From: Klebsiella phage vB_Kpn_K54_rec1
Strand: one strand, 5' to 3'
Length of the DNA: 64,000 nucleotides
Sequence record: PQ569687.1
Of the stretch, positions 56,170-58,711 are shown piece after piece (the stretch's first letter is position 1; the number at the start of each line of letters is the position of its first letter). A program made the translations under genes and the position numbers. The notes under the pieces were generated by a model. The model saw nothing but the letters and a program-made list of their open reading frames with translations. It did not search any database and was not told the DNA's origin.

Positions 56170-57849
56170 TTACAGTTGAGCGGCTGCGCGTTCACGAATC
56201 GTTGTCAGATCTTCATCGACAATAAGTTTACCGTTGTAGAACACACGACGCAGTTCGTTATCGTCAGACTGTACATCTTCAAGCTGACAATTGTCAATCA
56301 GTTCTAACTGACCGAACATGTTGCGAACAACTTTGAGGAAACCTTTCGCAGATTTCTTACTGAGGTCGGTCTTAGGCTCTTTGACAACCATGATTTGCTG
56401 ACCATCAATAACAGCGCCAGTTGCTTTCACAGCCATACCAAGTGAATCACGGGTTGTATACTGGGTGGTAAAGGAACCAACACCGTACACGATATTGCTG
56501 GATGCAAAGCCTTTATCTTTCAGACGTTCAAAGATGTCTTTTGCACGAGCAACAGTGATGGAATCACCATAGATCAGACCAATATGACTATCAAGAACCT
56601 TATAGCCCTTGGAATTAACTTCACCACCGAAAATATCCCATAAACATTGGACTGCACCTACAGCTTCATGGTAAGGAACTTCATCTGTTTCATCAATAAC
56701 ATCAAAACCTGAAGACTGCTTGACACGATAGAACTTACCAAGAACCTGAACAAGTTCATATCCGGCTTCCGCATTGGCATCATAAGCTTCTTCAAAGCTT
56801 GCATAATCACCGCCATCTGTGTAGTAACCAGCAATGATATGCTCAGGGACACCGGAGTCCGGGCGGAATACAACACGTCCATCGCGAGCCATGATTTCCT
56901 GTTTCAGGATCGCTGCTGCTTTGGTGATAATCGCCCAGAAGTCATAACTGTCTGCCACGTAGGAAACAAAACCTTTAGGGAAAATTTCCGTAATGTAGCG
57001 TTTCATGAATTCAACTTCAGCCAAGAAACGTGATTCGTCCAGAGTCAGTTCCGGGTGTTCACCTTGTAGGCGACCGACGATAAATCCGATGTTCGTGGTT
57101 GCAACAGAGTGTTCAGATGCAGGAATAGAACCAGCAACGAACTTGCCTTTCATGTTGTAATAACGACGAGCATACAGAATCGCTGGGATAGTGTCTGTAC
57201 CCATAGAGTTGATCAGTTGACCAAATTCGCTCTGTGCTGCGTCGTGAGTACCAGCTTCACCGCGATAGGCGAAGCAGTGGTTCTGGAATGCAACATGGTC
57301 GTTGTTATCACAGGTCTCAGCAGCCCATTTTTCAGACAGCTTGCGATACTGCCAGAACGTCGTTGCAGTTGTGATAGTTTTCCAGGTTTCTGCGGAGATC
57401 ACACTTTCCAGAAAGTTAGGCAACCAGTAAAAATCCGGGTGCGTATTCTGGATTGTAAACATTGGGACCTGAACCGGAGAAAGCGTTCCTTCTGGAAGAG
57501 CACGGATTTCCAGAGGAAGATAACCGAGATCATGAAGAGCCTCAAAGCCCCAAGTTTCTACCATGCCAATGCCGATGCTGGAGTCGCAAACCTCACGATA
57601 ATCAGCAACCGCTTCTTCTTTCGGGAGGTTGAAGAAGTTATTGTTGAACATGTCGATAAGGAACCACTTAATAAATCCCTGAAGGCCAGCAAACATGACA
57701 CGCTGGTCGTTATCAGCGAAGTGGATGAAGTGCTTCGCATTACGAGGGGTCATGTTATCCTGAACAATTTCAGAACGTTTATCATACATGGAGATGTGTG
57801 AAGGTTTGTAAAAGTCAGCGAACAGGATAGGACTTTCTTGATTAAGCAT
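56170..57849 (-). CDS. nadV: nicotinamide phosphoribosyltransferase (NadV/NAMPT family; possibly a Namat-type ADPR-PP transferase)
   Basis: Start trimmed to MLNQESPIL (RBS aaggag). 559 aa type-II PRTase-like. NadV is a known component of Felix O1/KVP40-type phages. Confidence 0.8.
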   Translation of the reverse strand: MLNQESPILFADFYKPSHISMYDKRSEIVQDNMTPRNAKHFIHFADNDQRVMFAGLQGFIKWFLIDMFNNNFFNLPKEEAVADYREVCDSSIGIGMVETWGFEALHDLGYLPLEIRALPEGTLSPVQVPMFTIQNTHPDFYWLPNFLESVISAETWKTITTATTFWQYRKLSEKWAAETCDNNDHVAFQNHCFAYRGEAGTHDAAQSEFGQLINSMGTDTIPAILYARRYYNMKGKFVAGSIPASEHSVATTNIGFIVGRLQGEHPELTLDESRFLAEVEFMKRYITEIFPKGFVSYVADSYDFWAIITKAAAILKQEIMARDGRVVFRPDSGVPEHIIAGYYTDGGDYASFEEAYDANAEAGYELVQVLGKFYRVKQSSGFDVIDETDEVPYHEAVGAVQCLWDIFGGEVNSKGYKVLDSHIGLIYGDSITVARAKDIFERLKDKGFASSNIVYGVGSFTTQYTTRDSLGMAVKATGAVIDGQQIMVVKEPKTDLSKKSAKGFLKVVRNMFGQLELIDNCQLEDVQSDDNELRRVFYNGKLIVDEDLTTIRERAAAQL

Positions 57850-57910
57850 GTTTTGTTTCTCCTTTGTTTGTTTAATAGGGCGATTGTACGCCCACTTATT
57901 CATTTGTCAA

Positions 57911-58711
57911 TTAAAAGTTTTCGGTCCAGTCGTGGTATGCGTAGATTTCATCAACGCCGCCTTCGTAGATAACTTCTTTACCGAAGGAAAAGATGCCGTG
58001 AGTTACGTAAAGAATAACACGTTTTGCACCATTTTCTTTCAAGGATTGTGCAAGAGCGATGAAGGTGCGCCCACCATCACAGATATCATCCACGATAACA
58101 CACTCTCGGTCTTTCACATCACCGAAGAATGTTGTGCCAGTGATCTGTCCTGTGACAACATTACGGACCTTGCCTGCTTCAACTAAAGGTAGTCGCATAC
58201 GGTCTGCCACCTTCTGTGCTTTTTTACGAGCGCCAGCGTCGGGAGCAACAATGGTGACATCTTTTCCAGCCAGTTGGTCATGGAATTCAGCAACTAATAT
58301 GTCTTGTCCACGAATTTTTACATTATCAAGCAAAGCAGCAGAAACATCGCTATGTGGGTCATCAACAATAACTTCATCAAAACCGAGTGAATTCACAATT
58401 CTTGCGAATACTTTGATTGACAATGCTTCGCCAGGTTGCATGATGCGGTCTTGACGTGCATATGGGATGTATGGAAGGTTCAGTGTGAATTTAGCATTTG
58501 TATGAAGATTCTCAAGTCGAGAACATGCATCAACTAACATGCACAAGGCCATAACATCTGAAGAATTTTTAATTTTTGCAGTTATTTCCACAAAACCAAT
58601 GCTACCCTTCGGCGCATGTTGGAGATCAATTTTCACGTTTTCCTCGCCACCCTTGAAGGTAGAGTGGTCAACAGGCACTACTAGGTTGTTCAGACGAAGT
58701 TCTAAACTCAT
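57911..58711 (-). CDS. prs: ribose-phosphate pyrophosphokinase family protein, C-terminally short (Prs, or Adps-like ADP-ribose pyrophosphokinase)
   Basis: IPYARQDR flag motif and PRPP-binding loop VIVDDICDGGRT. Only 266 aa, against about 315 for canonical Prs. Confidence 0.8.
   Translation of the reverse strand: MSLELRLNNLVVPVDHSTFKGGEENVKIDLQHAPKGSIGFVEITAKIKNSSDVMALCMLVDACSRLENLHTNAKFTLNLPYIPYARQDRIMQPGEALSIKVFARIVNSLGFDEVIVDDPHSDVSAALLDNVKIRGQDILVAEFHDQLAGKDVTIVAPDAGARKKAQKVADRMRLPLVEAGKVRNVVTGQITGTTFFGDVKDRECVIVDDICDGGRTFIALAQSLKENGAKRVILYVTHGIFSFGKEVIYEGGVDEIYAYHDWTENF

Follow-up and report, generated by a model that had tools for sequence, protein, structure and literature searches.

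Genes 79 and 80 of Escherichia phage Bas63 (JohannRWettstein), which carry the annotations Prs and Nampt, are Adps and Namat and together make up NARP1, a system that reconstitutes nicotinamide adenine dinucleotide (NAD+) (Osterman et al., 10.1101/2024.02.11.579819). In that system, Adps turns ADP-ribose (ADPR) plus ATP into ADP-ribose pyrophosphate (ADPR-PP), and Namat joins ADPR-PP to nicotinamide to yield NAD+; the pair counters SIR2-HerA, Thoeris, DSR1/2, and SEFIR (10.1101/2024.02.11.579819). In 97% of the Adps clade, Adps is adjacent to Namat (Osterman et al.). Bas63 overcame SIR2-HerA even in a host from which pncC and nadR had been deleted. Here we describe a pair of adjacent genes, encoding a Prs-like and a Nampt-like protein, in a 64,000-nucleotide stretch of DNA (the window) from Klebsiella phage vB_Kpn_K54_rec1 (PQ569687.1; below, K54_rec1), which, as judged from the sequence, very probably constitutes a NARP1 module consisting of Adps and Namat. 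The two genes are referred to below as adps and namat, after their predicted products.

The residues by which such proteins can be recognized are known from work on SpbetaL1 and Vibrio phage ICP1. The SpbetaL1 Adps made no product in a Prs-type assay, formed ADPR-PP from ADPR and ATP, and was inactive as a K162A mutant. Structures of the SpbetaL1 Namat have been solved (9W5X and 9W5W), and they revealed an adenine selectivity clamp, composed of a variable loop (SCL, with Arg40) plus a conserved helix (SCH), that Nampt does not have (PMC12774641). The SCH signature is GS-X-Φ-X-Φ-X-Φ-TRD, in which positions 3 and 7 are aromatic, and the stacking residue of the SCL is either an Arg at position 3 or, when position 3 is Lys or Tyr, the residue at position 4; in Lys-type loops, the residue following the Lys is proposed to stack on the adenine (PMC12774641). 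Mutation of R306 inactivated the SpbetaL1 Namat. The same enzyme retained Nampt activity on phosphoribosyl pyrophosphate (PRPP) in vitro, and only NAD+ was made when both donors were offered. The ICP1 Adps has been solved in its apo form and with substrate and product, and the structures defined the residues of the ADPR site, the catalytic Lys185, and a remodelled pyrophosphate (PP) loop; ADPR spans the sites that Prs uses for ADP and ribose-5-phosphate (R5P), and ATP binds at this loop. A signature of the Adps family is that its members have lost the C-terminal alpha11-alpha12 module (PMC13586617).

The phage from which the window derives is a myovirus of Klebsiella and, going by the taxonomy of phage KB57, belongs to the Vequintavirinae/Mydovirus type. 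The initial annotation had reported adjacent Prs-like (266 aa) and NadV-like (559 aa) genes, and both were recovered as minus-strand open reading frames (ORFs) at the expected positions, in the order adps and then namat, with a 61-nt spacer between the adps stop codon and the namat start codon (Table 1). The adps product matched the Pfam families Pribosyltran_N, Pribosyltran, and Pribosyl_synth, that is, a PRPS-like two-domain fold, and the NCBIfam model TIGR01251 (E = 8e-46; 156 bits; profile positions 20-267 of 309). The namat product matched NAPRTase in Pfam (E = 1.5e-27) and PRK09198 in NCBIfam (E = 2e-144). The 2.5-kb region that holds the pair was 100% identical in Klebsiella phages vB_Kpl_K54lambda1.1.1 and K54_rec2-6 and showed 93% nucleotide identity to KB57.

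An SCH clamp motif was present in the K54_rec1 Namat, where residues 458-468 read GSFTTQYTTRD and place the aromatic residues F460 and Y464 at positions 3 and 7. The same region reads GSFTYQYNTRD in the SpbetaL1 Namat, GSYTYQYMTRD in the Bas63 Namat, and GSYTYQYVTCD in the ICP1 Namat. The clamp motif was not found in the control Nampts, namely, those of Xanthomonas (Xcc; GGALLQKVDRD) and of the KVP40-like phage ValKK3 (GGGLLQQLDRD). The SCL was assigned to K39-H40-F41, and the surrounding sequence (TPRNAKHF, compared to TPRSDKWF in Bas63) fits the pattern of a Lys-type loop. The protein was 48% identical to the SpbetaL1 Namat, and 19 of the 22 residues that contact NAM or NAD+ in the SpbetaL1 enzyme were identical (phmmer alignment; published numbering). 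These included D12, Y14, F193, R196, D219, A244, D331, G428, D429, G458, S459, T466, R467, and D468, as well as R329, which corresponds to SpbetaL1 R306, and the adenine clamp residues F460/Y464, which correspond to F392/Y396. The catalytic His, in the motif ASEHS, was likewise conserved.

The SpbetaL1 Namat was also the best match in the PDB (9W5X/9W5W; 414 bits; E = 5e-123 for 9W5X), compared to approximately 170 bits (~1e-49) for human NAMPT. The second-best match, 9KE8/9KEO, is a 495-aa "nicotinamide phosphoribosyltransferase" (E = 1e-105) whose motif, GAQTYQRNTRD, departs from the pattern of the Namats and from that of canonical Nampts alike. Because our literature search found no paper describing 9KE8/9KEO, which could be a Namat or a bacterial NadV, the best PDB match by itself was not taken as a discriminator. 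Relative to the SpbetaL1 protein, the K54_rec1 Namat owed its greater length to two insertions, the larger of which (~56 aa) lies at the site of a bigger insertion in Bas63; among Namats encoded by phages that infect Gram-negative hosts, such an insertion is nothing exceptional.

The K54_rec1 Adps was aligned with four assayed Adps proteins (those of ICP1, Bas63, SpbetaL1, and FADO) and with Escherichia coli Prs. Residues F19, R86, H120, D158, K181, D208, and D209 corresponded to F18, R87, H121, D161, K185, D212, and D213 of the ICP1 Adps, such that the Lys of the catalytic beta-hairpin was kept (K181, equivalent to ICP1 K185 and SpbetaL1 K162). The PP loop, CDGGRT, was identical to that of the Bas63 Adps; the ICP1 loop reads CDGAAS. 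The motifs IPYARQDR and DDICDGGRT, which the initial annotation had described as intact, were both present, and its estimate that some 50 C-terminal residues were missing agreed well with the alignment, in which the K54_rec1 protein (ending in YHDWTENF) fell short of the C terminus of E. coli Prs by about 49 residues and the alpha11-alpha12 module was absent. Because loss of this module has been published as the Adps signature, the C-terminal shortening is a hallmark of the family and not damage.

Profile comparisons gave the same picture. With a hidden Markov model (HMM) that was made from just the four assayed Adps proteins, the K54_rec1 protein scored 205 bits, compared to 88 bits for E. 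coli Prs, and each of the assayed Adps proteins matched the K54_rec1 protein 2 to 3 times better than it matched E. coli Prs. With the NCBIfam Prs model PRK01259 (cutoff of 297 bits), the K54_rec1 protein scored 134 bits and the assayed Adps proteins scored 74 to 101 bits, compared to 533 bits for E. coli Prs. Indeed, the K54_rec1 protein remained under every NCBIfam Prs equivalog cutoff, as the assayed Adps proteins do. Falling below the equivalog and subfamily cutoffs and having no C-terminal allosteric/filament module, it grouped with the Adps proteins and not with the housekeeping class I Prs enzymes.

Orthologues of the pair were already listed in the published catalogue. In Table S1 of Osterman et al. 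(Adps homologs), KB57 (KT934943_00120), BIS47, KpS8, Mydo, and PVP-SE1 appear with the entry "Namat within 10 genes: Yes," and in Table S2 the Namat partners of the same five phages are designated "Adps-associated." The K54_rec1 Adps was 85% identical to that of KB57. Near-identical pairs from sister phages have thus been catalogued by Osterman et al. The initial annotation had raised NARP1 as a candidate, stating that Prs/NadV and Adps/Namat could not be told apart from the sequence alone, and had named a profile and structure comparison as one means to do so. With the clamp motif, the ligand contacts, the Adps residues, the HMM scores, and the catalogued orthologues in hand, each of the two proteins can now be separated from its canonical counterpart and placed with NARP1.

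Two database entries point to fused forms of the pair as well. The profile of PHROG 12872 (547 positions) matched Adps over its first half and Namat over its second half, and the row for Shigella phage Ag3 in Table S1 of Osterman et al. reads as an Adps-Namat fusion. Because of these two entries, we conclude that fused versions exist or are annotated as such; they are possibly products of deletion or frameshift.

Several features of the K54_rec1 proteins weigh against a NARP1 assignment. Among the Adps proteins compared, the subgroup formed by the K54_rec1, KB57, and PVP-SE1 proteins was the most Prs-like: the K54_rec1 Adps scored 91 bits against E. coli Prs, compared to 41 to 58 bits for the assayed Adps proteins; its YARQDR motif was intact; and its identity to E. 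coli Prs (29.7%) was about the same as its identity to the SpbetaL1 Adps (30.8%). ICP1 F92, which contacts the adenine, was replaced by M91, although the validated Bas63 Adps also has Met at this position. In the Namat, position 5 of the SCH, which is usually aromatic, was Thr, and the presumed stacking residue of the SCL was His and not Trp or Arg. Moreover, because the SpbetaL1 Namat retains activity on PRPP in vitro, a quantitative substrate preference cannot be obtained from sequence alone, and our literature search found no test of a Vequintavirinae NARP1.

If the locus is a NARP1 module, then its mode of action would follow that worked out for the known systems. A host NADase of the SIR2, TIR, SEFIR, or DSR type would cleave NAD+ to ADP-ribose and nicotinamide, whereupon Adps would take the beta,gamma-pyrophosphate from ATP and attach it to the terminal ribose of ADPR, giving ADPR-PP, and Namat would exchange the pyrophosphate of ADPR-PP for nicotinamide to give NAD+ directly; with NAD+ regenerated, replication of the phage could continue. 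For the K54_rec1 proteins, the two reactions, the preference for ADPR and ADPR-PP over R5P and PRPP, and the antidefense phenotype are inferred from homology with Bas63, SpbetaL1, FADO, and ICP1.

The Prs-like character of the K54_rec1 subgroup led us to consider whether Adps proteins of the Vequintavirinae type, which formed the shortest branch of the family compared here, might be functional intermediates that use both R5P and ADPR, with Namat, under its own promoter/hairpin cassette (see below), completing a dual-purpose module. We regard this as unlikely; if it were true, such an intermediate Adps would show how the specificity of Adps evolved from that of Prs. For the K54_rec1 pair itself, the corresponding reading is that Adps accepts R5P as well as ADPR and Namat accepts PRPP as well as ADPR-PP, so that constitutive synthesis of nicotinamide mononucleotide (NMN) and NAD+ would be combined with NAD+ reconstitution triggered by defense. 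In its favor, the similarity to E. coli Prs is the highest among the Adps proteins compared, bifunctionality of Namat in vitro has been published, and the separate conserved promoter-like element before namat could allow the two genes to differ in level or timing of expression. However, ADPR occupies both the ADP and the R5P sites of the Prs fold in the ICP1 Adps, with ATP at the remodelled PP loop, and the PP loop of the K54_rec1 protein is identical to that of the Bas63 Adps. Nothing in the sequence points specifically to the use of R5P, and the SpbetaL1 Namat yielded only NAD+ in the presence of both donors. We consider it quite improbable that the K54_rec1 pair serves both purposes.

It is less probable still that the genes encode a canonical auxiliary pair, in which Prs would convert R5P to PRPP and NadV/Nampt would convert PRPP and nicotinamide to NMN; such a pair would raise nucleotide and NAD+ salvage by way of the host's NadR or PncC, whether or not a defense is at work. 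The names given by GenBank, Pfam, NCBIfam, and PHROGs all agree with such a pair, as do the comparatively Prs-like Adps with its retained YARQDR motif and the residual Nampt activity of Namats on PRPP. Yet for Bas63 and SpbetaL1 these same annotations proved incorrect, the K54_rec1 Namat has the adenine clamp that canonical Nampts lack, and the K54_rec1 Adps has lost the alpha11-alpha12 module and fails all Prs equivalog cutoffs. A canonical Prs and NadV were rejected on the basis of the clamp motif, the missing module, and the behavior toward the HMM and the cutoffs. For these genes, "ribose-phosphate pyrophosphokinase" and "nicotinamide phosphoribosyl transferase," as used in GenBank, are thus misleading names.

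A NARP2-type pathway (Nampt and the NMN adenylyltransferase Nmnat), for which KVP40 is a published example, was suggested by the presence of a Nampt-family gene and by the mention of KVP40-like phages in the initial annotation, but it has next to no likelihood, since the K54_rec1 Namat was 31% identical to the ValKK3 Nampt compared to 42 to 48% identical to Namats, its clamp motif is of the Namat and not the Nampt type, its partner is Adps-like, and Table S2 of Osterman et al. gives its KB57 orthologue as "Adps-associated." NARP2 and NARP3 were both rejected, as the partner is Adps-like and not Nmnat or NadR/PnuC; among the ORFs surrounding the locus, which were the part of the genome scanned, none had an Nmnat-like domain. 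The adjacency of Prs and NadV genes that the initial annotation ascribed to KVP40-like phages was not seen in ValKK3, whose Nampt gene has no Prs gene within 2.5 kb, and KVP40 itself represents NARP2 and not NARP1.

We also considered whether the predicted NARP1 module of K54_rec1 might carry accessory genes. The Macro-domain phosphatase Adpp, which in NARP1-AP lies within two genes of NARP1, was not found in the flanking ORFs scanned with Pfam and PHROGs, and none of these ORFs matched the RyR domain (PF02026) of RyDEP. Within the ORFs covered, the locus is a plain two-gene NARP1. Defense of the aRES type has been found in Klebsiella pneumoniae, and aRES makes ADPR-1''-phosphate; because no Macro-domain phosphatase accompanies the module, the phage would, under the published model, remain sensitive to this type of defense.

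The arrangement of expression signals around adps and namat was then examined. It comprises a candidate promoter for the whole unit, upstream ORFs that overlap, a further promoter-like site inside the unit ahead of namat, and, behind namat, a terminator. At its longest, the second ORF begins at ATG 57903 and would encode 577 aa (56170..57903). This start was rejected, as it has no ribosome binding site and falls within the promoter-like element of the spacer. Because AAGGAG lies 9 nt upstream of ATG 57849 and because the annotations of KB57 and PQ569688 begin namat at the equivalent start, ATG 57849 is almost certainly the true start codon, which gives a protein of 559 aa.

The -10 hexamer of the promoter-like element in the spacer, TACAAT, forms the loop of a hairpin with the stem GGGCG/CGCCC (57893..57878; -11.1 kcal/mol; z = -2.2). 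This promoter/hairpin unit was kept directly 5' of namat in Ro1, SSE121, PVP-SE1, 4MG, and KP13-16. The TTGACA hexamer and the spacing were conserved in six phages of the Vequintavirinae and Stephanstirmvirinae, in which the stem occurred in four mutually compensated variants, and the unit stayed with namat even where another ORF parts adps from namat. A similar cassette, at about 9100..9136 on the plus strand, was the only other good instance in the window. The element may act as a promoter of namat. The initial annotation had stated that the two genes are cotranscribed. Cotranscription is plausible, but because the conserved promoter/hairpin unit, with its near-consensus sigma70-like promoter, sits in the 61-nt spacer before namat, simple cotranscription is probably not the whole picture. 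On the plus strand, a promoter-like site (59908..59935) stands back to back with the candidate promoter of the minus-strand unit. The intrinsic terminator that follows namat was left out by the consensus terminator scan and was read directly from the sequence.

Table 1. Features of the predicted NARP1 locus of Klebsiella phage vB_Kpn_K54_rec1 (window coordinates)
Feature	Position	Strand	Details
Intrinsic terminator after namat	56143..56162	-	GCCCC-TTCG-GGGGC, then TTTTCT; read directly
namat (Nampt-like), predicted nicotinamide ADP-ribose transferase	56170..57849	-	559 aa from ATG 57849
Shine-Dalgarno sequence of namat	57859..57864	-	AAGGAG, 9 nt 5' of ATG 57849; invariant in six relatives
Sigma70-like promoter candidate, adps-namat spacer	57878..57910	-	TTGACA-16-TACAAT, 11/12 consensus match; -35 at 57910..57905, -10 at 57888..57883
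adps (Prs-like), predicted ADP-ribose pyrophosphate synthetase	57911..58711	-	266 aa; from ORF, Pfam, NCBIfam, residue mapping, and HMM
Upstream ORF	58708..59271 (59289 with TTG)	-	187 aa from ATG, 193 aa from TTG 59289
First ORF of minus-strand unit	59273..59635	-	120 aa; weak HTH_36 match; phrog_8453
Candidate promoter of minus-strand unit	59876..59904	-	TTGACA-17-GATAAT; consensus match only

Two ORFs precede adps on the minus strand. The ATG of adps overlaps the stop codon of the nearer of these by 4 nt (ATGA). The product of this ORF has a winged helix-turn-helix followed by a T5orf172/endonuclease-like C terminus (Pfam; PHROGs 25806 and 681); the ORF is absent at the equivalent position of KB57, and a homologue with 41% identity is present in SSE121. 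This ORF is likely to be a mobile insertion rather than a component of NARP1. The first ORF of the unit was 95% identical to KB57_095. The NARP1 locus appears as an insertion hotspot, with the extra ORF abutting adps here and not in KB57. In Pectobacterium phage CB7, HNH endonuclease genes lie between adps and namat and also split namat into two ORFs (3339..5306 of the CB7 locus), and in 4MG and KP13-16 an additional ORF lies between adps and namat (locus positions 378..911 and 380..532, respectively).

Other observations concerned the records and the surroundings of the locus. Positions 75046..77587 of OY979426.1 are 100% identical to positions 56170..58711 of the window, and the labels over adps and namat in that record are "thymidylate kinase," "HNH endonuclease," and "metal-dependent phosphohydrolase," and its feature table seems to have been shifted or misassigned. 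A set of 22 tRNA genes (46921..54919, minus strand) lies a few kilobases downstream of NARP1 on the same strand, with 20 of the genes within 46.9-51.6 kb and two tRNA-Met genes at 54766..54919. On the other side, a divergent plus-strand block encodes a calcineurin-like metallophosphoesterase (61185..61778), a T4 Rnl1-type RNA ligase (62286..63263), and a cREC_REC cyclic-phosphate-processing receiver domain protein (63260..63604); the block looks like an RNA repair module. Just past the end of the window, the annotation of an identical GenBank record continues with a Sir2-like gene and one for a nucleotide pyrophosphohydrolase.

Taken together, these results suggest that this Klebsiella phage, along with the Mydovirus/Seunavirus group, is probably equipped for hosts with NAD+ depletion of the SIR2, TIR, DSR, or SEFIR type. 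The locus adds no new biology to the published NARP1 catalogue, and knowledge of NARP1 would be useful when therapeutic Klebsiella phages are chosen or engineered.

The predicted K54_rec1 enzymes share with the canonical enzymes what is common to their folds. The Adps retains the fold and catalytic core of E. coli Prs (RQDR, DxHS, and DD...G.T) but lacks the alpha11-alpha12 regulatory/filament module, and the Namat retains the fold, the NAM pocket, the catalytic His, and the R306 equivalent of the Nampt/NadV enzymes (human, Xanthomonas, and KVP40 type), with the adenine clamp residues F460 and Y464 at the site where canonical Nampts have GG(A/G)LLQ..DRD. Compared to the ICP1 Adps, to which it was 40% identical, the K54_rec1 Adps conserves F18, R87, H121, D161, K185, D212, D213, and C215-D216, similarly lacks the alpha11-alpha12 module, and similarly has a Namat gene next to its own; it differs by having Met for F92, G-R-T for A218-A219-S220, and Ala for F223 of the lid. 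With SpbetaL1, the resemblance is greater for Namat (the identity, the 19 shared contacts, F392, Y396, and TRD) than for Adps, which was 31% identical and shares the catalytic Lys (K162, K181 in K54_rec1) but has SSFGGT in place of CDGGRT in the PP loop, and the SpbetaL1 Namat differs from that of K54_rec1 by having Arg40 in the SCL instead of Lys39/His40 and by not having the two insertions.

The Bas63 system is similar in gene order and domain content, in the PP loop CDGGRT, in the Met at the position of ICP1 F92, in an SCL whose pattern fits the Lys type (K-W-F in Bas63 and K-H-F in K54_rec1), and in the site of the large Namat insertion. The identities between the two systems were 41% for Adps and 42% for Namat. 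Bas63 belongs to a different lineage, Felixounavirus, with a genome of 87 kb compared to approximately 143 kb for the Vequintavirinae/Mydovirus-like source of the window. Its Adps is longer (293 aa versus 266 aa for the K54_rec1 protein, which has no C-terminal tail at all) and reads NARYDR where the K54_rec1 Adps reads YARQDR, and its Namat insertion is larger (~90 aa versus ~56 aa). Finally, the Bas63 pair has been examined experimentally, whereas the K54_rec1 pair is known through its sequence.

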